A DNA stretch of 64,000 bases from Escherichia coli (lineage in GTDB: Bacteria; Pseudomonadota; Gammaproteobacteria; Enterobacterales; Enterobacteriaceae). The translations under genes were made by a program, and so were the position numbers. The DNA is taken from assembly GCF_009931435.1 (NCBI RefSeq), contig NZ_CP043414.1; one strand, written 5' to 3'. Positions 1 through 42,893 of the stretch are shown one piece after another. The notes beneath the pieces were generated by a model that did not search any database, was not told the DNA's origin, and worked only from the letters and a program-made list of their open reading frames with translations. The first letter of the stretch is position 1. Each line of letters opens with the position of its first letter.

Positions 1-53
1 CGGTGAGGCGCAATGTTGCGGGGGCTTAATCCCTGGTGGCATTGGTTGCTGGA

Positions 54-121
54 GAGAGAAAACCCCCGCACGTTGCAGATATTCACCTGACAACATCACG
101 GGGGCTAATCTTGAACCTAGA
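54..121 (-). ncRNA. rdl: Candidate Rdl antisense sRNA, unit 1 (position approximate)
   Basis: Nested hairpin (cccccg...caggt/acctg...cggggg) preceded on the + strand by gagagagaaaa, which reads as hairpin plus U-run on the - strand, about 50 nt upstream of the ldr ATG. Rdl is known to be encoded antisense to the ldr leader. Confidence 0.3.
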
Positions 122-170
122 CCACTCAAGAATAGCCGCGAAACGTTGTCATTACAACACAGGCGGCTAT

Positions 171-278
171 ATGACGCTCGCAGAACTGGGCATGGCCTTC
201 TGGCATGATTTAGCGGCTCCGGTCATTGCTGGCATTCTTGCCAGCATGATCGTGAACTGGCTGAATAAGCGGAAGTAA
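171..278 (+). CDS. ldr: Ldr type I toxin peptide, copy 1 (35 aa, MTLAELGMAFWHDLAAPVIAGILASMIVNWLNKRK)
   Basis: 35-codon ORF closely matching the K-12 LdrD peptide as recalled; followed by a stem-loop terminator. Confidence 0.85.
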   Translation: MTLAELGMAFWHDLAAPVIAGILASMIVNWLNKRK

Positions 279-328
279 CGTGTCAGACGGGCGTCAGGCT
301 GCCGTAATGGCAATTTGCGCCCGGACCA

Positions 329-362
329 GGCCGCAGAGATAAAACTCTGCGGCCTTTTTCGT
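329..362 (+). terminator. Intrinsic terminator after ldr copy 1
   Basis: GGCCGCAG...CTGCGGCC stem-loop followed by TTTTT. Confidence 0.6.
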
Positions 363-536
363 AAGAAAAATGCAACGGTTGCAAGCGGATAATATTCTGC
401 GGAATGCGCAGCACAGAGTGAAGAAGTGATGGATTCTGGAACAGAAAAACAGTCGTAGAATCAGCAGCAAGCCGGAAGGGTTCCGGTGAGGCGCAATGTT
501 GCGGGGGCTTTATCCCTGGTGGCATTGGTTGCTGGA

Positions 537-604
537 GAGAGAAAACCCCCGCACGTTGCAGGTATGCACCTGACAACATCACGGGGGCCATTCTTGCATC
601 CAAA
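537..604 (-). ncRNA. rdl: Candidate Rdl antisense sRNA, unit 2 (approximate)
   Basis: Same hairpin plus U-run structure at the equivalent position in unit 2. Confidence 0.3.
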
Positions 605-653
605 CAATACAAGAATAGCCGCGAAACGTTGTCATTACAACAGAGGCGGCTAT

Positions 654-761
654 ATGACGCTCGCAGAACTGGGCATGGCCTTCTGGCATGATTTAGCGGC
701 TCCGGTCATTGCTGGCATTCTTGCCAGTCTGATCGTGAACTGGCTGAACAAGCGGAAGTAA
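654..761 (+). CDS. ldr: Ldr type I toxin peptide, copy 2 (35 aa, ...ASLIVNWLNKRK)
   Basis: Same 35-codon ORF in repeat unit 2; M26L relative to copy 1. Confidence 0.85.
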   Translation: MTLAELGMAFWHDLAAPVIAGILASLIVNWLNKRK

Positions 762-811
762 CGTGTCAGACGGGCGTCAGGCTGCCGTAATGGCAATTTG
801 CGCCCGGACCA

Positions 812-845
812 GGCCGCAGGGATAAAACTCTGCGGCCTTTTTCGT
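812..845 (+). terminator. Intrinsic terminator after ldr copy 2
   Basis: Same GC stem-loop plus T-run. Confidence 0.6.
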
Positions 846-1020
846 AAGAAAAATGCAACGGTTGCAAGCGGATAATATTCTGCGGAATGCGCAGCACAGA
901 GTGAAGAAGTGATGGATTTCGACGAACAAAAATGGCCGTAGAATCAGCGGCAAGCCGGAAGGGTTCCGGTGAGGCGCAATGTTGCGGGGGGCTTTATCCC
1001 TGGTGGCATTGGTTGCTGGA

Positions 1021-1088
1021 GAGAGAAAACCCCCGCACGTTGCAGGTATGCACCTGACAACACCACGGGGGCCATTCTTGCATCTAGA
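1021..1088 (-). ncRNA. rdl: Candidate Rdl antisense sRNA, unit 3 (approximate)
   Basis: Same structure at the equivalent position in unit 3. Confidence 0.3.
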
Positions 1089-1137
1089 CCATTCAAGAAT
1101 AGCCGCGAAACGTTGTCATTACAACACTGGCGGCTAT

Positions 1138-1245
1138 ATGACGCTCGCAGAGCTGGGCATGGCCTTCTGGCACGATTTAGCGGCTCCGGTCATTGCTGGC
1201 ATTCTTGCCAGTCTGATCGTGAACTGGCTGAACAAGCGGAAGTAA
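1138..1245 (+). CDS. ldr: Ldr type I toxin peptide, copy 3
   Basis: Same ORF in repeat unit 3; peptide identical to copy 2. Confidence 0.85.
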   Translation: MTLAELGMAFWHDLAAPVIAGILASLIVNWLNKRK

Positions 1246-1295
1246 CGTGTCGGACGAGCGTCAGGCTGCCGTAATGGCAATTTGCGCCCGGACCA

Positions 1296-1328
1296 GGCCG
1301 CAGGGATAAAACTCTGCGGCCTTTTTCG
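1296..1328 (+). terminator. Intrinsic terminator after ldr copy 3
   Basis: Same GC stem-loop plus T-run. Confidence 0.6.
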
Positions 1329-1504
1329 TAAGAAAAATGCAACGGTTGCAAGCGGATAATATTCTGCGGAATGCGCAGCACAGAGTGAAGAAGTGATGGA
1401 TTTCGACGAACAAAAATGGCCGTAGAATCAGCGGCAAGCCGGAAGGGTTCCGGTGAGGCGCAATGTTGCGGGGGGCTTTATCCCTGGTGGCATTGGTTGC
1501 TGGA

Positions 1505-1572
1505 GAGAGAAAACCCCCGCACGTTGCAGGTATGCACCTGACAACACCACGGGGGCCATTCTTGCATCTAGA
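1505..1572 (-). ncRNA. rdl: Candidate Rdl antisense sRNA, unit 4 (approximate)
   Basis: Same structure at the equivalent position in unit 4. Confidence 0.3.
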
Positions 1573-1621
1573 CCATTCAAGAATAGCCGCGAAACGTTGT
1601 CATTACAACACTGGCGGCTAT

Positions 1622-1729
1622 ATGACGCTCGCAGAGCTGGGCATGGCCTTCTGGCACGATTTAGCGGCTCCGGTCATTGCTGGCATTCTTGCCAGTCTGA
1701 TCGTGAACTGGCTGAACAAGCGGAAGTAA
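1622..1729 (+). CDS. ldr: Ldr type I toxin peptide, copy 4
   Basis: Same ORF in repeat unit 4; unit appears identical to unit 3. Confidence 0.85.
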   Translation: MTLAELGMAFWHDLAAPVIAGILASLIVNWLNKRK

Positions 1730-1779
1730 CGTGTCGGACGAGCGTCAGGCTGCCGTAATGGCAATTTGCGCCCGGACCA

Positions 1780-1812
1780 GGCCGCAGGGATAAAACTCTG
1801 CGGCCTTTTTCG
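1780..1812 (+). terminator. Intrinsic terminator after ldr copy 4
   Basis: Same GC stem-loop plus T-run. Confidence 0.6.
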
Positions 1813-1987
1813 TAAGAAAAATGCAACGGTTGCAAGCGGATAATATTCTGCGGAATGTGCAGCACAGAGTGAAGAAGTGATGGATTCCGGAACAGAAAAA
1901 CAGTCGTAGAATCAGCGGCAAGCCGGAAGGGTTCCGGTGAGGCGCAATGTTGCGGGGGCTTAATCCCTGGTGGCATTGGTTGCTGGA

Positions 1988-2055
1988 GAGAGAAAACCCC
2001 CGCACGTTGCAGGTATGCACCTGACAACATCACGGGGGCTAATCTTGAACCCAAA
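1988..2055 (-). ncRNA. rdl: Candidate Rdl antisense sRNA, unit 5 (approximate)
   Basis: Same structure at the equivalent position in unit 5. Confidence 0.3.
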
Positions 2056-2104
2056 CAACTCAAGAATAGCCGCGAAACGTTGTCATTACAACAGAGGCGG
2101 CTAT

Positions 2105-2212
2105 ATGACGCTCGCAGAACTGGGCATGGCCTTCTGGCATGATTTAGCGGCTCCGGTCATTGCTGGCATTCTTGCCAGTCTGATCGTGAACTCGCTGAAT
2201 AAGCGGAAGTAA
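2105..2212 (+). CDS. ldr: Ldr type I toxin peptide, copy 5, variant (...ASLIVNSLNKRK, Trp30 to Ser)
   Basis: Same ORF frame in repeat unit 5; tgg to tcg change read directly in the sequence. Confidence 0.8.
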   Translation: MTLAELGMAFWHDLAAPVIAGILASLIVNSLNKRK

Positions 2213-2262
2213 CGTGTCATGCGGGCGTCAGGCTGCCGTAATGGCAATTTGCGCCCGGATCA

Positions 2263-2295
2263 GGCCGCAGGGGTGAAACTCTGCGGCCTTTTTCG
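2263..2295 (+). terminator. Intrinsic terminator after ldr copy 5, convergent with the bcsG 3' end
   Basis: Same GC stem-loop plus T-run, ending 4 nt before the bcsG stop. Confidence 0.6.
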
Positions 2296-2298
2296 TTC

Positions 2299-3978
2299 TT
2301 ATTGCGGGTAAGGCACCCAGTCGCCGCCGTTCAGGCGAACGTACGGTTTATCCTGGTATTGAATAACCACTGCATTTGAGTTCTCGGAGACCGGTGCTGT
2401 TTGTGGCAACCCACTGGTGAGTTTTTTCCAGTCAACATTGTCTTCGGTGAAAATCTTACCATCAAGAACGCGAACCACCAGATCGGAGATAGCCAGGAAG
2501 CTGCTCGGTTGGTCGATGACAATCGGTGCCCCCTGATGTGGTGCCTTCATGCCGAAGAATTTCACCCCAACGGGGACGTCTGTGATAGACGGGCTAGGGA
2601 TATCACGTAGGCCAGATACCTGCATTCTGTCGCCCTTCAGCGCGCCACCGTGTTCCGGCACCACTACCACCATCACTTTACGACCCGATTTCTCCAGTTC
2701 AGTAAAGAAGGCGTCCAGCTCATCAAAGAATTTCTGCGCTCGCGCTTTGTAATCCGCTGTTTTGCTGACGCCCGGATAATGGTTGCCGTCATGCAGTGGA
2801 AGCGTGTTGTAGAACGTGGCACTACGGCTGTTTTTATCTTTTTCGGTAACGTCCAGCCAGCGGTTAAGCACGGCGGTATCGTCATAAACCGGCGAACCAT
2901 CAAAGCCCAGCAAAATAACCGGCAGATTTGTTTGATCCATCAATTCGGTCTGCATGCCGCCATTTTCGCGAACTTCTTTCAAAAAACCGCCGAACTGGCC
3001 GTTATGTCCCATCATCAGGTGCTGGGTAAAGCCCAGTTTCGACAGGTTATCAAACAGATAGCAGTCGTTATTTGCCGGTTGATACAGATTAGTGTGCGAA
3101 GTCTGCCCGCAGCTGGCGCGCAGTAAACGGATCGCCGCCGGGCCACTGTAGGAGGTGGCGGAGTTAAAGTTCTTGAACTCAATATCGAAATGCGACCACA
3201 GCGGATGCGACATCAACCCGGCGGCTTCAATATCCGACCAGGAAAGCGAACAGATATTAATCACCAGTAGTTCAAATGGCTGAGCATCAGCGGGCAGCGA
3301 AGACGGGAAGGTCGATTTACGTTTCGCCTCCGCGTTATAGAAATTATTCAACCAGGCGTTAAGGTTCGCCGTTGTTGGCGGTGCAGTTTGTGCGGGCATA
3401 TCACCCACTACCGGTGCGCCACCCGTCGCCGCAACGGTTGCCGCTGCGTTACCACCCGTCGTTGTTACAGTGGTCGTCGGTTGACCGGCAGGCCACAAGG
3501 AGAAACTTGGTCCCGCCAGGGTAAGTACGTTCAGCCATAGCAGAATGGCAACCACAAAAACGGTAATGCGAATCCATTGTGACAGGAATAACCAGGCCAC
3601 TAATAAAACAAAAATGGCCCCAATCATCTGCCAGTTAATAAAGCGTGTGACAAGGTCGATTAAATAATCGGTACTGAACCCCGCCACCTGCGAACCCTGG
3701 CTCATTATGCTTTCCGGGCCCGGCAACCAGGTGTCATGCCAGAACAAAGCAAAGCCGATCGGCAGGGCAATCCAGTGGCGTAAGCGATGCAGGCTGTAGC
3801 GCGGAATGGGCATCAGCAGAAACGCGGCAAACACCAGATTGAGGAGCGGATGGAAGTTAAGATATCCCGCCCACAACAGGCCGAACTTAACCAGAAAATA
3901 GAAGTTCCAGCCGGAAAGGCCGCGCCAGTATTGCCAGAGGGAAGAAGGCATGGCGGTATTTTGCGTAAATTGAGTCAT
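2299..3978 (-). CDS. bcsG: Cellulose biosynthesis protein BcsG (phosphoethanolamine transferase)
   Basis: 559-aa ORF with N-terminal membrane segments and alkaline-phosphatase-like C-terminal domain; matches E. coli BcsG in sequence and position. Confidence 0.95.
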
Positions 3979-29711: not shown

Positions 29712-30229
29712 TTCTTTGACCGATTGTTGTTCACAGCGAAACAGTAACGCGCATATCGCATTGTTTATTGTTTTTCTAACATCTAATGCCGGGTTTCACA
29801 ATGTTGTCATGACGAATGTGGCGATTTCTCAGTAGGAAAAGGGGAGAATAGCTTTATGAGAACGGTGAATCCCCTTAAACAGAGCGTATTTTTCAGCGAT
29901 TCCCTTTAAAGTGAACAGAGGACGTATTGGCTATTTGTGCTTATTTTTGTCTCATTGCCGTTTGTTATTTTGGCTTGTGGTCGCGGAATTTCATTTTTAA
30001 TTGCATGCGTACTAGCCATCAATATAAGGAAATCCTCAAAATTGTTTTAAATAATGCCCTCGACATGTAATTTCAGGCGTTTAGCTGTAACTATTTATAT
30101 CGGTAACTATTTTCTACGCGTCATCTCTGTAGAATGGCCACCGCCAAATGGCGAATTCTTATTTTTTCTCGCGGGTAATACCCTTCCACTACTTAAGTCT
30201 TTTTAACGTATTCAGGTGGAGATTCAGTT

Positions 30230-30832
30230 ATGCAAATAGTCATGTTTGACAGGCAGTCAATATTTATTCATGGAATGAAAATCAGTTTACAGCATCGTAT
30301 TCCAGGAGTGAGTATTCAGGGGGCCAGTCAGGCAGACGAGTTATGGCAAAAGCTGGAAAGTTACCCTGAAGCCTTAGTGATGCTCGATGGCGATCAGGAT
30401 GGTGAGTTTTGCTACTGGTTGCTGCAAAAAACCGTGGTGCAATTTCCTGAGGTTAAGGTGTTAATTACGGCGACGGATTGCAACAAACGGTGGTTACAGG
30501 AAGTTATTCATTTTAATGTGCTGGCCATTGTGCCTCGTGATTCAACCGTCGAGACATTTGCGTTGGCGGTCAATAGTGCGGCGATGGGGATGATGTTTCT
30601 GCCGGGAGACTGGCGAACGACGCCGGAAAAGGACATTAAAGATCTCAAATCGTTAAGCGCCCGCCAGCGGGAGATTTTAACCATGTTAGCGGCGGGCGAA
30701 TCAAATAAAGAGATCGGCAGGGCGCTGAATATCAGTACCGGAACGGTAAAAGCGCATCTGGAATCCCTGTATCGCCGTCTGGAAGTGAAAAATCGCACCC
30801 AGGCGGCAATGATGTTAAATATCTCCTCCTGA
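30230..30832 (+). CDS. yhjB: LuxR/FixJ-type regulator YhjB
   Basis: 200-aa ORF with C-terminal LuxR HTH; matches YhjB. Confidence 0.9.
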   Translation: MQIVMFDRQSIFIHGMKISLQHRIPGVSIQGASQADELWQKLESYPEALVMLDGDQDGEFCYWLLQKTVVQFPEVKVLITATDCNKRWLQEVIHFNVLAIVPRDSTVETFALAVNSAAMGMMFLPGDWRTTPEKDIKDLKSLSARQREILTMLAAGESNKEIGRALNISTGTVKAHLESLYRRLEVKNRTQAAMMLNISS

Positions 30833-30882
30833 AGAGGATAATTTTACAGCCAGCAGGACGTTAGCGGCTGGCTGTAAAAATA

Positions 30883-32562
<1,680 letters not shown>

Positions 32563-32936
32563 TTATCGGGCTTTTCTTTAAGGGTAGTCATTCGCTCCGC
32601 CTGGTGGGCGACAAAGCGTGCGGTGGATCACGTTTATTAACTTGTCAAAAAATATAACGCACTAATATCAATAGAATTTATAAAAATACGGATTCCGTGT
32701 TGTTTTTCATTTTCAGAACATTCAATCCTGCTCTCGCCGCAATCATGATATGCCATTCCTGCTCTGTATAATAGGTACAGACTATCTTATTGATAGTTTA
32801 TATTCATGTAATTGATTGATTCCTATCAAAAAGCGTATTTCCCTGTTTTTTATGATGGCTTTGTCTCGCAGAGACGTTTGCAGCATTCTGGAAAATTTTC
32901 TGGGTCACAATAACTCACCACCGTGAGGGAAGAATA

Positions 32937-34334
32937 ATGAAAATGGTCTCACGTATTACCGCGATCGGCCTGGCTGGCGTCGCGATTTGCTATTTAGGGT
33001 TATCTGGTTATGTGTGGTACCACGATAATAAACGCAGTAAACAGGCCGATGTTCAGGCATCTGCTGTCAGTGAAAATAATCAGGTTTTAGGTTTTCTTCG
33101 CGAAAAAGGATGCGACTATTGTCATACGCCTTCGGCAGAATTACCCGCCTATTATTATATTCCTGGCGCGAAACAGTTGATGGATTACGACATTAAGCTT
33201 GGATATAAATCTTTTAACCTCGAGGCCGTGCGTGCGGCTCTGTTGGCAGATAAACCCGTTTCGCAAAGCGATCTGAATAAGATTGAATGGGTGATGCAGT
33301 ATGAAACTATGCCGCCAACGCGTTACACCGCGCTACACTGGGCGGGTAAGGTGAGTGATGAAGAGCGGGCGGAAATACTTGCCTGGATTGCAAAACAGCG
33401 CGCGGAATATTACGCCAGTAATGATACTGCTCCGGAGCATCGCAATGAACCGGTGCAGCCTATTCCGCAAAAACTGCCTACCGATGCGCAAAAAGTGGCG
33501 TTGGGTTTTACGCTGTATCATGATCCCCGTTTATCGGCTGATAGCACCATTTCATGTGCACATTGCCATGCGTTAAATGCGGGTGGCGTTGATGGCAGAA
33601 AAACGTCGATTGGTGTTGGTGGTGCCGTTGGACCGATTAACGCACCGACGGTATTTAACTCAGTATTTAACGTTGAGCAGTTCTGGGATGGTCGTGCGGC
33701 AACATTGCAGGATCAGGCGGGTGGACCGCCGTTGAACCCGATTGAAATGGCGTCGAAATCCTGGGACGAAATTATTGCTAAGCTGGAAAAAGATCCGCAG
33801 CTTAAAGCGCAGTTCCTCGAAGTCTATCCGCAAGGTTTCAGTGGCGAAAATATTACTGATGCTATTGCTGAATTTGAGAAAACATTAATTACGCCGGATT
33901 CCCCATTTGATAAATGGTTGCGTGGAGATGAGAATGCGCTGACGGCGCAACAGAAAAAAGGCTATCAATTATTTAAAGATAATAAATGTGCAACTTGTCA
34001 TGGTGGTATTATTCTCGGCGGACGTTCTTTCGAGCCGTTGGGGCTGAAAAAAGACTTTAACTTTGGGGAAATTACGGCGGCGGATATTGGTCGTATGAAT
34101 GTTACTAAAGAAGAGCGTGATAAATTGCGTCAGAAAGTACCCGGTTTACGTAACGTTGCTTTAACGGCACCGTACTTCCATCGCGGTGACGTGCCGACGC
34201 TGGACGGGGCGGTAAAACTGATGCTGCGCTATCAGGTAGGCAAAGAGCTGCCGCAGGAAGATGTGGATGATATCGTAGCTTTCCTGCACAGTCTGAACGG
34301 GGTATATACGCCGTATATGCAGGATAAACAATAA
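32937..34334 (+). CDS. yhjA: Di-heme cytochrome c peroxidase YhjA
   Basis: 465-aa ORF with CxxCH motifs (CDYCH, CAHCH, CATCH). Confidence 0.9.
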   Translation: MKMVSRITAIGLAGVAICYLGLSGYVWYHDNKRSKQADVQASAVSENNQVLGFLREKGCDYCHTPSAELPAYYYIPGAKQLMDYDIKLGYKSFNLEAVRAALLADKPVSQSDLNKIEWVMQYETMPPTRYTALHWAGKVSDEERAEILAWIAKQRAEYYASNDTAPEHRNEPVQPIPQKLPTDAQKVALGFTLYHDPRLSADSTISCAHCHALNAGGVDGRKTSIGVGGAVGPINAPTVFNSVFNVEQFWDGRAATLQDQAGGPPLNPIEMASKSWDEIIAKLEKDPQLKAQFLEVYPQGFSGENITDAIAEFEKTLITPDSPFDKWLRGDENALTAQQKKGYQLFKDNKCATCHGGIILGGRSFEPLGLKKDFNFGEITAADIGRMNVTKEERDKLRQKVPGLRNVALTAPYFHRGDVPTLDGAVKLMLRYQVGKELPQEDVDDIVAFLHSLNGVYTPYMQDKQ

Positions 34335-34445
34335 TTAATTTGATCGCCCGAACAGGAATGTTTGGGCGATTTTTATTACGACAATAAAGTCTGTTTTTAA
34401 TATTATCATGTTAAACGTTTATATTATAAAAAGTCCTTTTTCTGC

Positions 34446-34465
34446 TTAGGATTTTGTTATTTAAA
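34446..34465 (+). promoter_or_regulatory. GAD box upstream of gadA (GadE/GadX/GadW binding site)
   Basis: Exact TTAGGATTTTGTTATTTAAA about 80 bp upstream of the gadA ATG. Confidence 0.8.
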
Positions 34466-34544
34466 TTAAGCCGGTAATGCCTTGCTTCCATTGCGGATAA
34501 ATCCTACTTTTTTATTGCCTTCAAATAAATTTAAGGAGTTCGAA

Positions 34545-35945
34545 ATGGACCAGAAGCTGTTAACGGATTTCCGCTCAGAACTACTCGATTCACGTTTTGG
34601 CGCAAAGGCCATTTCTACTATCGCGGAGTCAAAACGATTTCCGCTGCACGAAATGCGCGATGATGTCGCATTCCAGATTATCAATGATGAATTATATCTT
34701 GATGGCAACGCTCGTCAGAACCTGGCCACTTTCTGCCAGACCTGGGACGACGAAAACGTCCATAAATTGATGGATTTGTCGATCAACAAAAACTGGATCG
34801 ACAAAGAAGAATATCCGCAATCTGCAGCTATCGACCTGCGTTGCGTAAACATGGTTGCTGACCTGTGGCATGCGCCTGCGCCGAAAAATGGTCAGGCCGT
34901 TGGCACCAACACCATTGGCTCTTCCGAGGCCTGTATGCTCGGCGGGATGGCGATGAAATGGCGTTGGCGCAAGCGTATGGAAGCCGCAGGCAAGCCAACG
35001 GATAAACCTAATCTGGTGTGCGGCCCGGTACAAATCTGCTGGCATAAATTTGCCCGTTACTGGGATGTGGAGCTGCGTGAAATCCCTATGCGCCCCGGTC
35101 AGTTGTTTATGGATCCGAAACGCATGATTGAAGCCTGCGACGAAAACACCATCGGCGTGGTGCCGACTTTCGGCGTGACCTACACCGGTAACTATGAATT
35201 CCCGCAACCGCTGCATGATGCACTGGATAAATTCCAGGCCGACACCGGTATCGACATCGACATGCACATCGACGCCGCCAGCGGTGGCTTCCTGGCACCG
35301 TTCGTCGCCCCGGATATCGTCTGGGACTTCCGCCTGCCGCGTGTGAAATCGATCAGTGCTTCAGGCCATAAATTCGGTCTGGCTCCGCTGGGCTGCGGCT
35401 GGGTTATCTGGCGTGATGAAGAAGCGCTGCCGCAGGAACTGGTGTTCAACGTTGACTATCTCGGTGGTCAGATTGGGACTTTCGCCATCAACTTCTCCCG
35501 CCCGGCGGGTCAGGTGATTGCACAGTATTATGAATTCCTGCGCCTCGGTCGTGAAGGCTATACCAAAGTACAGAACGCTTCCTACCAGGTTGCCGCTTAT
35601 CTGGCGGATGAAATCGCCAAACTGGGGCCGTATGAGTTCATCTGTACCGGTCGCCCGGACGAAGGCATCCCGGCGGTTTGCTTCAAACTGAAAGATGGTG
35701 AAGACCCGGGATACACCCTCTACGACCTCTCTGAACGTCTGCGCCTGCGCGGCTGGCAGGTTCCGGCCTTCACTCTCGGCGGTGAAGCCACTGACATCGT
35801 GGTGATGCGCATTATGTGCCGTCGTGGCTTCGAAATGGACTTTGCTGAACTGTTACTGGAAGACTACAAAGCCTCCCTGAAATACCTCAGCGATCACCCG
35901 AAACTGCAGGGTATAGCCCAGCAGAACAGCTTTAAACACACCTGA
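34545..35945 (+). CDS. gadA: Glutamate decarboxylase GadA (466 aa)
   Basis: Starts [19 protein letters not shown]...; called gadA and not gadB because gadX follows. Confidence 0.95.
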
Positions 35946-35964
35946 TAACATAATTTTGTAAAAA

Positions 35965-36010
35965 CCGAATGCCCCGACCTTAAAAAACAGGTGGGGCATT
36001 CGGTTACTTA
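35965..36010 (+). terminator. Stem-loop downstream of gadA
   Basis: ccgaatgcccc...ggggcattcgg palindrome; weak U-tail. Confidence 0.4.
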
Positions 36011-36313
36011 TTCATGCAATAATATATTGGCTGTTTATTCATCGTGTTGATAAGATATATGTTATATGAATGTTATTAAGGGTGGCGAGACCGTTTAATA
36101 TCACAATAAGGGATTATTTGCTTACTAATAATTTCCCTGCGTTTTTAACGCCTTTTTTTGTATTATAAATCCAGTTATCCAGCCCGACTATCATCACACA
36201 TCATCATCCTGTTTTCCCGCTTCGTTTAAATTTATTTATCAATCAATTTGACTTAAGAGGGCGGCGTGCTACATTAATAAACAGTAATATGTTTATGTAA
36301 TATTAAGCCGACT

Positions 36314-37138
36314 ATGCAATCACTACATGGTAATTGTCTAATTGCGTACGCAAGACATAAATATATTCTCACCATGGTTAATGGTGAATATCGCTATTTT
36401 AATGGCGGTGAACTGGTTTTTGCGGATGCAAGTCAAATTCAAGTGGATAAGTGTGTCGAGAATTTTGTATTAGTTTCAAGGGACACGCTTTCATTATTTC
36501 TCCCGATGCTCAAGGAGGAGGCATTAAATCTTCATGCACATAAAAAAGTTCCTTCGTTACTCGTTCATCACTGTACCAGAGATATTCCTGTTTTTCAGGA
36601 GGTTGCGCAACTATCGCAGAATAAGAATCTGCGCTATGCAGAAATGCTCCGTAAAAGAGCATTAATCTTTGCGTTGTTATCTGTTTTCCTGGAGGACGAG
36701 CAGTTTATACCGCTGCTTCTGAACGTTTTGCAACCGAACATGCGAACACGAGTTTGTACGGTCATCAATAATAATATCGCCCATGAGTGGACATTAGCCC
36801 AAATCGCCAGCGAGCTGTTGATGAGTTCAAGCCTGTTAAAGAAAAAATTGCGCGAAGAAGGTACGTCATATTCACAGTTGCTTACTGAGTGTAGAATGCA
36901 ACGTGCTTTACAACTTATTGTTATACATGGGTTTTCAATTAAAAGAGTCGCAGTGTCCTGTGGTTATCACAGCGTGTCGTATTTCATTTACGTTTTTCGA
37001 AATTATTATGGGATGACGCCCACAGAGTATCAGGAGCGATCGGCACAAGAATTGCCGAACCGTGACTCGGTGGCAAGTATTGTTGCACAAGGGAATTTTT
37101 ACGGCACTGACCGTTCTGCGGAAGGAATAAGATTATAG
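36314..37138 (+). CDS. gadX: AraC-family acid resistance regulator GadX
   Basis: 274-aa ORF matching GadX. Confidence 0.95.
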   Translation: MQSLHGNCLIAYARHKYILTMVNGEYRYFNGGELVFADASQIQVDKCVENFVLVSRDTLSLFLPMLKEEALNLHAHKKVPSLLVHHCTRDIPVFQEVAQLSQNKNLRYAEMLRKRALIFALLSVFLEDEQFIPLLLNVLQPNMRTRVCTVINNNIAHEWTLAQIASELLMSSSLLKKKLREEGTSYSQLLTECRMQRALQLIVIHGFSIKRVAVSCGYHSVSYFIYVFRNYYGMTPTEYQERSAQELPNRDSVASIVAQGNFYGTDRSAEGIRL

Positions 37139-37154
37139 AGTTTTACTCAGACAT

Positions 37155-37260
37155 AAAAAAAACCCGGCATAGGGGACCGGGAAGAGGATAGTCTGCCGTC
37201 TCCAGACTAATAAACCGTTATAACACTCCCTGTTGGCACGGGAAACTTTGTGCTCTCAGT
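37155..37260 (-). ncRNA. gadY: GadY small RNA, antisense to the gadX 3' UTR
   Basis: Reverse complement begins ACTGAGAGCACAAAGTTTCCCGTGCCAACAGGG... and ends in CCCGGTCCCCTATGCCGGGTTTTTTTT, matching GadY as recalled. Confidence 0.8.
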
Positions 37261-37506
37261 AAGTTAAATATAACTTTTACTGGAAATAAGATCAGCCATT
37301 TTTTTATAAACATAAGCTATACGCTGTGTGAAAATATATTGGTGTTGCATTTACTTATTATCAATTAACTGTTATGCAAAACTACTTTGTGGATAAATTT
37401 TGGTCCTACCAAATATGGCAGTTTTTGCACTAAGAAACAGTCTGGCGTCATTTCATTAGTATACTGAAATTGAAATAATCGCAGTAATGAAATATAAGGG
37501 ATAGTC

Positions 37507-38235
37507 ATGACTCATGTCTGCTCGGTGATCCTCGTTCGTCGTTCATTGGATATTCATCATGAACAGCAAAAAATATCGTTGCACAACGAAAGTATTCTAC
37601 TGCTGGATAAAAATTTGGCAGATGATTTTGCGTTTTGTTCACCGGATACGCGACGGCTGGATATCGATGAGCTGACAATTTGCCATTACTTACAAAATAT
37701 TCGTCAGCTACCACGCAATTTAGGGTTACATAGCAAAGACCGTTTGTTAATTAACCAGTCCCCCCCCATGCCTCTGGTGACGGCGATTTTTGATAGTTTC
37801 AATGAATCCGGGGTAAATTCGCCGATAATGAGCAAGATGCTTTACCTTTCCTGTTTATCAATGTTTTCTCATAAGAAAGAACTTATCCCCTTACTTTTCA
37901 ATAGTATCAGTACTGTTTCAGGAAAAGTTGAACGCCTTATTAGCTTTGATATCGCTAAACGTTGGTATCTACGCGATATCGCGGAAAGAATGTATACCAG
38001 CGAGAGTCTCATCAAAAAAAAGTTGCAGGATGAAAATACCTGTTTCAGTAAAATATTACTCGCCTCCAGGATGTCGATGGCCAGACGATTACTCGAGTTA
38101 CGTCAAATTCCTCTACATACTATTGCAGAAAAATGTGGGTATAGCAGTACGTCGTACTTTATAAACACATTTCGACAATATTATGGTGTAACGCCACATC
38201 AGTTTGCGCAACATTCTCCGGGTACCTTCTCCTGA
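37507..38235 (+). CDS. gadW: AraC-family acid resistance regulator GadW
   Basis: 242-aa ORF matching GadW. Confidence 0.95.
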   Translation: MTHVCSVILVRRSLDIHHEQQKISLHNESILLLDKNLADDFAFCSPDTRRLDIDELTICHYLQNIRQLPRNLGLHSKDRLLINQSPPMPLVTAIFDSFNESGVNSPIMSKMLYLSCLSMFSHKKELIPLLFNSISTVSGKVERLISFDIAKRWYLRDIAERMYTSESLIKKKLQDENTCFSKILLASRMSMARRLLELRQIPLHTIAEKCGYSSTSYFINTFRQYYGVTPHQFAQHSPGTFS

Positions 38236-38597
38236 CCTATTTCGTATTTGAATATTGGTCAGGATCTCGCACCTGCTTCATGTGAAACTCTTTCCTGATG
38301 ATCTCTTCCGGGCTACCGGCAAGATCTCTTTCGTAGTTAGCCAGGCGGTATAGGTATTTTCAGGAGGAAAAGACTCGGCATGTTTGGGATTATTAAGCTG
38401 ACAATTCATACGATTACGGGAATGTGGGTCAGTATTGTGCTGTTCAAATTGATGACGAATGGCTGGAGTGGCTTCTACTTTCAGTGCTGTGTACTAAGCC
38501 TGGTATTCCTGACGGTCAGCTGGTTGTTGAGTGGTGAATGGTTAGCAGGAAAGAGTAAGGCTGAACCCTCACGTTCAACCTTACTCTCATTTACACG

Positions 38598-41500
38598 TTA
38601 CGCTTTTTTAAAGCGGGCAAAGAGATGTTCCACTACAACGAAAAAGACTGGAACGAAGTAAATGGCCAGCACTGTTGCGGCAAACATCCCGCCCATCACG
38701 CCGGTACCTACCGCGTTTTGCGCGCCGGAACCGGCACCATGACTGATTACCAGCGGCAGCACGCCGAGAATAAAGGCCAGAGAGGTCATCAGGATTGGGC
38801 GTAAACGCATTCGCGCCGCTTCGATGATCGCCTCTATCGGCGTTTTCCCTTCTTTCTGCATCATCTCAACGGCAAATTCGACGATCAGGATGGCGTTCTT
38901 GGCGGAAAGCCCGATGGTAGTCAGCAAACCAACCTGGAAGTAGACGTCATTACTTAAGCCGCGCAGATCGGTGGCCAGTAATGCGCCAACGACGCCTAAC
39001 GGTACAACCAACATCACCGAGAACGGAATTGACCAGCTCTCATAAAGTGCGGCAAGGGCGAGGAACACCACGACCAGTGAAATGGCATACAGCGCGGGAG
39101 CCTGGTTTGAGGATAACGCTTCCTGATAAGACAGTCCGGTCCATGAGTAGCCGACGCCTGCCGGAAGTTTAGCGACCAGGTCTGCCATAAATTTCATGGC
39201 GTCACCGGTACTTTTCCCGGCCGCCGCTTCTCCTAAAATCTCCATTGACGGGATACCGTTGTAGCGTTCCAGTCGCGGCGAACCATAGGTCCATTCGGTA
39301 GACGAATAGGCAGAAAGCGGTGCCATCGTGCCAGAGGCGTTGCGTACATACCACTGGTTGATGTTATCCGGCAACATACGGAACGGCGTGCCTGCCTGGA
39401 CATACACTTTTTTCACCCGTCCCTGGTTGAGGAAGTCGTTCACGTAGCTGCTGCCGAAGGCGGTGGAAATTGTCTGGTTGATATCGGACAGCGCCACGCC
39501 CATTGCCTCGGCTTTCGCGGCATTGACGTTAACTTTGAACATTGGCGTATCTTCCAGGCCGTTCGGGCGTACCCCGGTAACCTGGTTCGGCGATTGCGCA
39601 GCCAGTGATAACAGCTCGTTTCGCGCCTGGGTCAGTTTTTCGTGCCCCAGGTTACCGTTGTCCAGCAGTTCCATATCAAAACCTGATGCGGTACCCAGTT
39701 CAGCCACCGCGGGTAAGTTGAACGGGAAGACGACGGCTTTATTGATACTGCTTAGCGCAATCATTGCCCGCTGAATGATCGCGGTAACTGAGTTTTCCTC
39801 GCCGACACGTTCAGACCACGGCTTGAGGCTGATAAACGCCAGACCGTTGTTTTGCCCCTGGCCACTGAAGCCAAAGCCGCCAACGGTAAACACCGACTGA
39901 ACATTATCTTTCTCTTTTGTCAGATAATAATCAGTCACCTGTTGCAGCACTTTCGTGGTGTTAACCATGGTTGCACCGGAAGGTAACTGCGCGGTGGTCA
40001 TAAATACCCCCTGATCCTCTTCTGGTAAGAAAGAGGTCGGCGTACGCAGGAACAGCACCGCCATCCCGGCGCAAATCAGCAGGTAGACCACCATGTAGCG
40101 ACCGGTACAACGCAACAGTGAGCGGGTGCTATCGGTATAGTGCTGAGTTGATTTTTCAAACAGCGTGTTGAAGCGTGCGAACAGGGCGTTAGGTTTGTGA
40201 CCGCCTTCCGGCGCGGCTTTCAGAATGGTGGCGCACAGGGCAGGGGTCAGGCTCATTGCGACAAATACTGAAAGCAGCATCGAGGAGATCAGCGTGATGG
40301 AGAACTGTCGGTAGATCTCCCCGGTTGCACCGCTCATAAAGGCCATCGGCATAAACACTGCGGAAAGCACAACGGCAATCCCGACCAGCGCACGTTGGAT
40401 CTGCCCCATGGATTTATGCGTTGCTTCCTTCGGCGGTAGCTTATCTTCCGCAATGACACGCTCGACGTTCTCCACCACCACGATGGCGTCATCCACCAAC
40501 AACCCTATCGCCAGCACCATCCCGAACATGGTGAGGGTGTTGATGGTGAAACCGACCGCCGACAAGATCGCAAACGTCCCGAGAATAACCACCGGTACGG
40601 CAATCGTCGGGATGATTGTGGCTCGGAAATTCTGCAAAAACAGATACATGACCAGGAAGACGAGGATGATAGCCTCAACCAGCGTTTTGAAAACTTCCTG
40701 AATAGAAATTTTGATAAACGGTGTGGTGTCGTAAGGATAAACCGTCTTCAGGCTTGCGGGGAAATAAGCCGATAAACGGTTCAGCTCCTCTTTCACCGCT
40801 CGCGAGGTATCCAGGGCGTTTGCTCCGGTAGCCAGTTTGATGGCGATACCGGCAGCAGGTTTGCCGTTATAGCGCGCCACGGTGGAATAATCTTCCGCCC
40901 CAAGTTCGACGCGGGCGACATCACGCAGCAGCACTTGCGAGCCATCTTGCTGAACTTTCAACAGGATTTTGCCAAATTCTTCCGGCGTTTGCAGACGCGT
41001 CTGCACAATGATCGAGGCGTTCAGTTGCTGGTCTGCCGCCTGTGGCATGCCACCCAGTTGACCACCAGAAATCTGGTTGTTTTGCACCTTAATCTGGGAA
41101 ATAACATCGGAAGGTACCAGGTTGTATTTATTGAGTTTTTGCGGGTCCAGCCAGATACGCATGGCATACTCGGAACCAAAGAGTTGTACGCTACCAACGC
41201 CCGCGGTACGGCTTAGCGGGTCTTTGATATTAGACGCTACATAGTCCGCGATATCGTACTGGTTGAGACTGCCGTTATCAGAAATGAACGCCGCTACCAT
41301 CAGGATATTACTGCTCGACTTATCGACGCTAATACCCTGCTGCTGCACCGCTTCAGGTAATGAAGGCATAGCGAGTTGCAGTTTATTTTGCACCTGAACC
41401 TGCGCGATATCAGGCGATGTCCCCGTCTCAAAGGTCAGAGTGATGGAGGCATTACCCGCCGCATCGCTGGTTGAAGACATGTACATCAGGCCATCAAGCC

Positions 41501-41711
41501 CATTCATATTTTGCTCAATCACCTGAGTGACCGAGTCTTCTACCGTTTGCGCATCGGCACCCGGATAGGTTGCGCTGACGGTAATGGTTGGTGGCGCAAT
41601 CTGCGGATATTGCGCAACCGGTAAGTTCATGATCGCCAGACCACCTGCAAGCATCATAATAATGGCAAGTACCCAGGCAAAAACCGGGCGATCAATAAAA
41701 TAGTTAGCCAT
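38598..41711 (-). CDS. mdtF: RND multidrug efflux transporter MdtF
   Basis: 1037-aa ORF matching MdtF (AcrB family). Confidence 0.95.
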
Positions 41712-41735
41712 GAAAGTCCCCTTAAGCCTGCAACG

Positions 41736-42893
41736 TTATTGTTTCGATTCGGTGCTGGCGTTTTCCTGGCTGGAGGAAATTGCACGTGCTTTGATACCCG
41801 GATGAATACGTTGCAAACCGGAAACGATCACCCGATCGCCAGCCTGCAAGCCAGAGGTGACAACCCACTGGTCGCCGATGGCTTTGCTGGCTTCAATTTC
41901 GCGTAGCTGCACAACATCGTCTTTATCCAGAATGAGCGCCGTTGCTTTACCCTGGGCGTTGTGGGTGACGCCTTCCTGCGGCACCAGTAATACATTCTGG
42001 CGGCTACCTTCATCCACTAATGCCGTGACATACATACCTGGCAGCAAGTCACCATTTGGGTTGGGGAAAATCGCCCGTAACGTCACGGAGCCCGTGGTTT
42101 CATCCACCGTCGGGTCGGAGAATTTCAGCGTGCCGGTCTGGCTGTAACGTTTACCATTTTCCAGATTGAGCTGTACTGGCGTACTGCCCTGAACCTGTTT
42201 GATTTGTCCACTGGCGACCTCTTCTTTCATGCGCAAAAAATCCTGCACCGACTGCGTGAGATCGACATAAATCGGGTCCAGACGTTGCACGGTAACCAGT
42301 GAATCGGCTTGATTAGCGGTAACGAGTGCGCCGACGGTCACCGACGATTTCCCGCTGACGCCCGTAATCGGCGAGGTGACATTCGCGTATTGCAGATTGA
42401 TCGTCGCCTGTTCAACAGCCGCTTTGGCGACGGTGACATTGGCTTCTGCTTCATTCAGCTGGGTGCGCGCGGTGTCGTAATCCTGACGGCTAACGTAGTT
42501 GGTCTTCAGCAATGATGCCTGGCGGTTAAAGGTGATGCGGGCATTGCTGGCGGTTGAGAGTGCTTTCGCCAACGAGCCTTTGGCGGAGTTTAGATCGGCC
42601 TGTAAAGGCGCAGGATCAATCTGATACAGCGAATCGCCCTGGTTCACTTTATCGCCTTCGATAAAGTTGCGTTTAATGATAATACCGCCCACCTGAGGGC
42701 GTATCTCGGCAACTTCATAAGGAACGGTTCTACCAGGCAATTCGCTCAACACATTGACCGAACCGGGGGAGAGTGTGACGACACCGACCTCAGGCGTCAT
42801 GGCGGCGGCGTTTTCCGTCGATTTGTCATCGCAGGCGGTGAGCATCGCGCCGCAGAATAACAACGGTATTAACAGTTTTCTTCTTCTGTTCAT
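41736..42893 (-). CDS. mdtE: RND efflux membrane fusion protein MdtE
   Basis: 385-aa lipoprotein-type ORF matching MdtE. Confidence 0.95.
   Translation of the reverse strand: MNRRRKLLIPLLFCGAMLTACDDKSTENAAAMTPEVGVVTLSPGSVNVLSELPGRTVPYEVAEIRPQVGGIIIKRNFIEGDKVNQGDSLYQIDPAPLQADLNSAKGSLAKALSTASNARITFNRQASLLKTNYVSRQDYDTARTQLNEAEANVTVAKAAVEQATINLQYANVTSPITGVSGKSSVTVGALVTANQADSLVTVQRLDPIYVDLTQSVQDFLRMKEEVASGQIKQVQGSTPVQLNLENGKRYSQTGTLKFSDPTVDETTGSVTLRAIFPNPNGDLLPGMYVTALVDEGSRQNVLLVPQEGVTHNAQGKATALILDKDDVVQLREIEASKAIGDQWVVTSGLQAGDRVIVSGLQRIHPGIKARAISSSQENASTESKQ

Follow-up and report, generated by a model that had tools for sequence, protein, structure and literature searches.

A Trp30-to-Ser variant of the bcsG-proximal ldrD toxin gene in Escherichia coli is an inherited and widespread allele

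The ldrD/rdlD array and its terminal copy

The DNA analysed here, a stretch of 64,000 nucleotides of Escherichia coli referred to as the window, begins with a tandem array of small toxin genes in which the last copy alone has serine instead of tryptophan at residue 30. The question raised by this locus is whether the substitution marks a toxin gene in decay or a working allele. The initial annotation, made from the sequence of the window, had described the substitution and proposed that the copy might be attenuated or an early pseudogene in a redundant array.

Window positions 1-2298 consist of at least five head-to-tail ldrD/rdlD type I toxin-antitoxin units, adjoining bcsG; five is a minimum, since the start of the window falls within unit 1. 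Alignment of the five units gave a period of approximately 484 nt and a mean column identity of 92%, the organisation of a long direct repeat. Each unit carries a 108-nt ORF on the + strand, an rdlD RNA upstream on the - strand and a terminator-like hairpin 3' of the ORF. The array is the ldrD/rdlD type I toxin-antitoxin locus of E. coli, and its features are as follows.

57-122, - strand: rdlD of unit 1 (RF01813, 85.5 bits)
171-278, + strand: ldr copy 1, Met26 and Trp30 (WP_001295224.1); peptide MTLAELGMAFWHDLAAPVIAGILASMIVNWLNKRK, from ORF translation
540-605, - strand: rdlD of unit 2 (RF01813, 82.9 bits)
654-761, + strand: ldr copy 2, Leu26 and Trp30 (WP_000170738.1), from ORF translation
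1024-1089, - strand: rdlD of unit 3 (RF01813, 81.8 bits)
1138-1245, + strand: ldr copy 3, Leu26 and Trp30, from ORF translation
1508-1573, - strand: rdlD of unit 4 (RF01813, 81.8 bits)
1622-1729, + strand: ldr copy 4, Leu26 and Trp30, from ORF translation
1907-1912, + strand: TAGAAT, -10-like hexamer, putative ldrD promoter element from sequence comparison
1991-2056, - strand: rdlD of unit 5 (RF01813, 90.4 bits, full length 1-66), antisense to the ldrD 5' UTR
2105-2212, + strand: ldrD copy 5, 35 aa, MTLAELGMAFWHDLAAPVIAGILASLIVNSLNKRK, identical to WP_000170736.1
2192-2194, + strand: codon 30 of copy 5, TCG (Ser); TGG (Trp) in the other four copies
2262-2294, + strand: terminator-like hairpin and T run at the end of the copy 5 transcript (11-bp stem with 8 GC pairs, then TTTTT)
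2299-3978, - strand: bcsG, 559-aa ORF, annotated as bcsG at all homologous loci

Translation and alignment bore out the substitution: codon 30 of copy 5 differs from that of copies 1-4 by a single base, G>C at position 2193, so that its peptide reads ...ASLIVNSLNKRK (ending in IVNSLNKRK) and those of copies 2-4 read ...ASLIVNWLNKRK. The separate difference that had been reported for copy 1 (...ASMIVNWLNKRK) was also found, codons 25-26 being AGC ATG (Met26) in this copy and AGT CTG (Leu26) in the others; Met26 is the state in K-12 LdrD.

Copy 5 is the terminal unit, anchored by bcsG, which forms the unique right-hand flank of the array. Its 3' UTR shows 2 mismatches in 82 nt to that of K-12 ldrD, against 5-7 for copies 1-4, and it abuts bcsG as K-12 ldrD does, which makes it the positional ortholog of that gene. 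Copy 5 is thus the canonical ldrD of the chromosome and copies 1-4 are the extra ones. In K-12 the position adjacent to bcsG holds a single ldrD unit (LdrD/RdlD, b4453/b4454; NMR structure PDB 5LBJ), whereas the window has at least five. The two loci share the bcsG side, a 35-aa peptide, the rdlD RNA and the 3' UTR; the peptides share 32 of 35 residues, K-12 LdrD having Phe3, Met26 and Trp30 where copy 5 has Leu3, Leu26 and Ser30.

An ORF, an antitoxin and a terminator-like hairpin are present in copy 5. The ORF is an intact one of 35 codons with an ATG start and a TAA stop, unlike that of a pseudogene, and copy 5 has kept its antitoxin, its -10-like box and its terminator-like hairpin, which spans 2262-2289. 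All five rdlD copies are full-length matches to the Rfam family (RF01813, gathering score 50) with scores between 81.8 and 90.4 bits, and the highest is that of unit 5, where the antisense Rdl RNA is encoded in cis opposite the toxin 5' UTR. The peptide matches the Pfam family Ldr_toxin (PF13940, curated cut-off 27 bits) with 83.4 bits over positions 1-35 of 35; with Trp30 in place of Ser30 the score is 90.7 bits, a drop of 7.3 bits for the variant. Both the transmembrane motif of the superfamily, P17-V-I-A-G21 (PxxxG), and the charged C-terminal cluster NKRK are found in copy 5. The tryptophan that stands between the two in the Fst/Ldr signature is absent, its place being taken by Ser30.

The TAGAAT hexamer is conserved upstream of each unit of the window and of K-12 ldrD. 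A strict two-hexamer scan for sigma-70 promoters detected no site in window positions 1-2400, so the putative ldrD promoter was assigned from the conservation of TAGAAT.

Distribution of the Ser30 allele in Escherichia coli

A single base difference among five units that differ at about 8% of their columns is not improbable and, by itself, unremarkable. What is non-random is which allele is present: an identical C, with identical flanks, recurs in 337 independent complete genomes. This was established with a 51-mer containing the Ser30 base (positions 2166-2216), placed so that each 28-nt megablast seed must cover base 2193. Of 5,426 complete E. coli genomes, 337 contained the 51-mer, each at exactly one place, and in 316 the match was exact. 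Carriers include 042, which we take to belong to phylogroup D, and IAI39, SMS-3-5, CE10 and an ST648 isolate, presumably all of phylogroup F. In these five genomes and in RMDEC465, WP_000170736.1 is annotated at the bcsG-proximal position.

The exact Ser30 peptide occurred on at least 1000 contigs, and a derived form with both A9S and Ser30 on 455. Among the other one-step replacements of TGG, exact peptide look-up found Cys30 on 11 contigs; Leu30, Arg30 and Gly30 on the same Leu26 backbone were absent from the contigs searched in this way. The outgroups E. albertii and Escherichia sp. E1V33 have Trp, which identifies Ser30 as the derived state. W30S is an inherited, long-established and already catalogued allele, neither private to the window nor an error, and the idea of a nascent pseudogene is not supported.

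The gene with Ser30 was the bcsG-proximal copy in all 12 of the other Ser30 genomes inspected, whose arrays comprised one to five units, and its ORF was undisrupted in 13 of 13 genes when the window is included. It is the only ldrD in the ST648 isolate and in RMDEC465, and in both it adjoins an rdlD match that exceeds the Rfam gathering score. In CE10, a distal Trp30 ldrD copy (locus L008, approximately 2956-3063) is frameshifted by a 1-nt deletion (GCAGACTGGGC), and no more than a 28-aa remnant of it is annotated; the Ser30 copy adjoining bcsG is intact.

With one place per genome for the 51-mer, no inner unit was seen to carry the Ser30 base, the arrays having at most five units. The inner ldrD units are mosaics that vary among strains. 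In tandem arrays the edge unit is generally largely exempt from homogenisation. Plausibly, then, we infer, unequal crossing-over homogenises the inner units and rarely reaches the edge unit, which would confine Ser30 to the terminal position.

Selection on the locus was considered at three levels. The Ser30 ORF is identical over 108 of 108 nt in the window, 042, IAI39, SMS-3-5, CE10 and RMDEC465, and the adjacent 914 nt of bcsG differ at 1-11 positions among the same six genomes (about 1% or less). Since only about one change would be expected in 108 nt at this flank divergence, the identity does not discriminate between purifying selection and recent neutrality, and the conservation of the Ser30 ORF was rejected as a test of purifying selection, the ORF being too short. 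For 15 distinct LdrD-type ORFs from 13 genomes, 6 synonymous changes in 23.7 sites and 5 nonsynonymous changes in 81.3 sites were counted (ratio approximately 0.24). This excess of synonymous change over expectation shows constraint on the peptide class, not on Ser30 specifically. Units of the LdrA/B/C type were present in 5,425 of the 5,426 complete genomes; redundancy at the level of the family is thus universal, and relaxed selection on Ser30 is possible.

Some features of the flanks were also recorded. In RMDEC465, whose sole ldrD is the Ser30 copy, the -10-like TAGAAT reads TAAAAG, with changes at the positions equivalent to window 1909 and 1912, which may be promoter-down. In IAI39 and CE10 bcsG is interrupted by an IS4 element; it is intact in the window. 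The ldr-bcsG end of the window is 99.9% identical to RMDEC465, and window positions 30000-42000 (gadA/gadX/mdtF/treF) have a best identity of 98.9% among the 5,426 complete E. coli genomes. Therefore, either the source lineage is poorly represented or the gadA/gadX/mdtF/treF region is recombinant.

The signature tryptophan in the Ldr family

The expectation that residue 30 matters for function agrees with published work on the superfamily. In published descriptions of the Fst/Ldr signature (Fozo 2010, PMC2887945; Weaver 2020, PMC7472228), a highly conserved Trp follows the transmembrane helix and precedes the cluster of charged C-terminal residues; the latter report also describes a P/D/S/TxxxG motif. 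Among 32 distinct Ldr peptides from different species, 24 have Trp30, which indicates that it is under constraint. The position at the junction may bear on a protein partner as well: YajC neutralises LdrA and LdrD, and its recognition of LdrA needs both the transmembrane and the cytoplasmic parts of the peptide (PMC12643268).

Toxicity upon overexpression and repression by Rdl have been published only for K-12 LdrD and LdrA (PMC8309996, PMC12643268, PMC4147584), and a 2021 review stated that mutagenesis of LdrD was still to be done (PMC8309996). Our literature search found no mutagenesis or toxicity measurement for the signature Trp of any Ldr peptide.

A precedent is Fst-pAD1 of Enterococcus faecalis, the prototype of the superfamily, which is toxic although Val takes the place of the signature Trp (PMC7472228; PMC8147318). 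Like copy 5, it is a small single-pass membrane toxin with PxxxG, a charged C-terminus and no signature Trp; unlike copy 5, it is a Gram-positive plasmid toxin with an acidic tail and with an antisense RNA that targets the 3' end. The Val of Fst-pAD1 is hydrophobic and the Ser of copy 5 polar, but their interfacial free energies are almost equal: on the Wimley-White interfacial scale, Trp to Ser costs 1.98 kcal/mol and Trp to Val 1.92. The loss of interfacial anchoring in copy 5 would therefore be about equal to that in a working toxin. Some attenuation from Ser30 is plausible, given that residue 30 is the signature position and that the Pfam score falls with Ser.

Loss of the tryptophan was also found outside E. 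coli. When one genome per species was scanned with the degenerate pattern W-[HD]-D-L-A-A-P-x-x-A-G, 29 loci were returned. From these, 38 Ldr genes were translated, one of them broken by a stop codon, and 29 of these genes have TGG as codon 30. In K. michiganensis this codon is CGG (Arg) in all three tandem copies, and the Arg30 peptide of this species was found on 694 contigs. The three copies of K. spallanzanii have CGG, AGT and AGG (Arg, Ser, Arg), the form of K. huaxiensis is also Arg30, and two of three Ldr genes of Kluyvera genomosp. 3 have AGG (Arg) and CAC (His). Trp30 is retained in two sister species, K. grimontii and K. pasteurii.

Every Trp-less gene found in the pattern scan has beside it an rdlD match that exceeds the Rfam gathering score. 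That toxins lacking the tryptophan retain the antitoxin, in K. michiganensis at every copy, argues, indirectly, for working modules rather than wrecks. The genes of K. michiganensis, K. spallanzanii and K. huaxiensis resemble copy 5 in forming tandem units with an intact 35-codon ORF, an rdl RNA and Arg or Ser in place of Trp30. They differ in belonging to another Ldr subgroup (WDDLAAP...SxMDNRK), in having mostly Arg and, in K. michiganensis, in lacking the Trp in all three copies, where the window lacks it only in the terminal one. The LdrA/B/C peptides of E. coli itself, encoded at the kdsA-chaA locus, belong to the same family and are likewise regulated by Rdl RNA; unlike LdrD they have consecutive W30 and W31, and their identity to LdrD is only about 57% (PMC8309996).

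A 503-nt contig labelled Bacillus sp. EB106-08-02-XG196 carries an ldrD of the E. coli type (MPFAELGMAFWHDLAAPVIAGILASMIVNWLNKRK), which is almost certainly assembly contamination.

Function of the Ser30 allele and competing explanations

Taken together, the sequence comparisons suggest that copy 5 is probably a functional, possibly milder, lineage-specific ldrD allele. Its mode of action would be that described for K-12 ldrD/rdlD. A stable ldrD mRNA, with an estimated length of approximately 380 nt, a long 5' UTR and a Rho-independent terminator, would be held in check by the short cis-antisense RdlD, which would pair with the 5' UTR and block translation, possibly via a leader ORF (the hypothesis of Gerdes and Wagner, cited in PMC4147584). 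If RdlD were lost, the 35-aa peptide would insert into the inner membrane, its cationic C-terminus facing the cytoplasm, a topology known from work on LdrA (summarised in PMC8309996), and growth would be arrested. Copy 5 keeps the P17xxxG21 helix and the cationic NKRK tail and would lack only the presumed interfacial Trp anchor between them, so that the Ser30 peptide should still insert and still be toxic when de-repressed, at a potency that may be somewhat lower.

The alternative that survives best, although we consider it unlikely, is that Ser30 is an attenuated or dead toxin kept by drift, its function being covered by the other Ldr genes, and on its way to becoming a pseudogene. What was lost is the signature residue of the superfamily, at a cost of 7.3 bits in the Pfam score; LdrA-type units exist in essentially all genomes; a second nonsynonymous change, A9S, has arisen on the Ser30 background; and the sole Ser30 copy of RMDEC465 has TAAAAG in place of TAGAAT. 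On the other hand, the ORF is intact in each of the 13 Ser30 genes inspected, and the copy that did decay, in CE10, is a Trp30 one. The antitoxin and the terminator are fully kept, Fst-pAD1 is toxic with no Trp, and K. michiganensis has retained its antitoxins although every copy is Trp-less. This is the idea of the initial annotation, whose early pseudogene in a redundant array is not supported: the allele is inherited and widespread, being shared by 337 of 5,426 complete genomes, the ST648 isolate and RMDEC465 have no other ldrD and CE10 no other intact one, and copy 5 is the bcsG-proximal ortholog of K-12 ldrD with a full-scoring rdlD and a terminator.

A second alternative, which we regard as improbable, holds that position 30 is naturally tuned, replacement of the Trp having been selected repeatedly for lower basal toxicity or for altered recognition of a partner such as YajC. 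The tryptophan has been replaced in at least three lineages (by TCG in E. coli, by CGG, AGG or AGT in the Klebsiella oxytoca complex and by AGG or CAC in Kluyvera), K. spallanzanii has three different non-Trp codons within one array, and residue 30 lies at the junction of the two LdrA domains that YajC needs (PMC12643268). Most of the replacements (Arg, Ser) are one mutational step from TGG, however, as neutral change would give, and the sample is too small for a test of selection. The broader proposal that the signature Trp acts as a recurrent 'potency dial', with lineage-fixed Trp-less alleles (S30 in the canonical ldrD of E. coli, R30 or S30 in the Klebsiella oxytoca complex, R30 or H30 in Kluyvera) selected several times independently for altered strength or altered recognition by YajC, is likewise improbable. 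If it were true, these alleles would be ready-made natural mutants for the function of the signature Trp.

It is also conceivable, but very improbable, that the substitution matters at the level of the RNA, C2193 pairing with G2149 and so lengthening a hairpin in the coding region of the ldrD mRNA. RNAfold predicted for positions 1918-2295, with an assumed 5' end, a minimum free energy of -184.8 kcal/mol with C and -182.6 kcal/mol with G, i.e. 2.2 lower for the Ser30 allele, and a probability that site 2193 is unpaired of 0.02 with C and 0.64 with G. This effect exists in silico only: the predicted accessibility of the Shine-Dalgarno/AUG region is 0.502 for both alleles, the partner shows no compensatory change and the Klebsiella replacements use other bases. 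A sequencing or assembly error in the window, the caveat attached to the initial annotation, can be dismissed, the identical base and flanks being present in 337 independent complete genomes and the protein having its own RefSeq accession.

W30S is an ordinary, catalogued variant of a well-known type I toxin gene and leaves the understanding of the system unchanged. Its modest value is that of a natural experiment, since it replaces the single conserved Trp by which the Fst/Ldr superfamily is defined, and some globally spread lineages, such as ST648, have Ser30 as their only LdrD. The natural variants with W30, S30, R30 and H30 suit a structure-function question, namely the role of the Trp in anchoring, toxicity and neutralisation by YajC.

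The leader regions of the units vary. A G run in the 5' UTR has 6 G in units 3 and 4 (986-991 and 1470-1475) and 5 G in units 1, 2 and 5 (20-24, 503-507 and 1954-1958). With 5 G, an upstream ATG opens a 25-aa ORF (MLRGL[N/Y]PWWHWLLERENPRTLQ[V/I][C/F]T); with 6 G, the upstream ATG (979 and 1463) is in frame with ldr, so that an 88-aa ORF results. Other strains show this variation between 5 and 6 G as well, among them IAI39, SMS-3-5 and CE10 in their Ser30 unit, and it may be relevant to the leader-ORF mechanism proposed for the control of ldr translation. At window positions 78-83, unit 1 reads GATATT, against GGTATG at the equivalent positions of units 2-5, which removes an ATG in frame with ldr within the region complementary to RdlD, which corresponds to the loop in the Rfam model of rdlD.

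Opposite each ldr ORF lies an overlapping antisense ORF of 48 aa (for copy 5, positions 2101-2247, - strand), and the W30S base turns ...FSQFTI... into ...FSEFTI... in that of copy 5; this ORF is probably a by-product of the hairpin-rich sequence.
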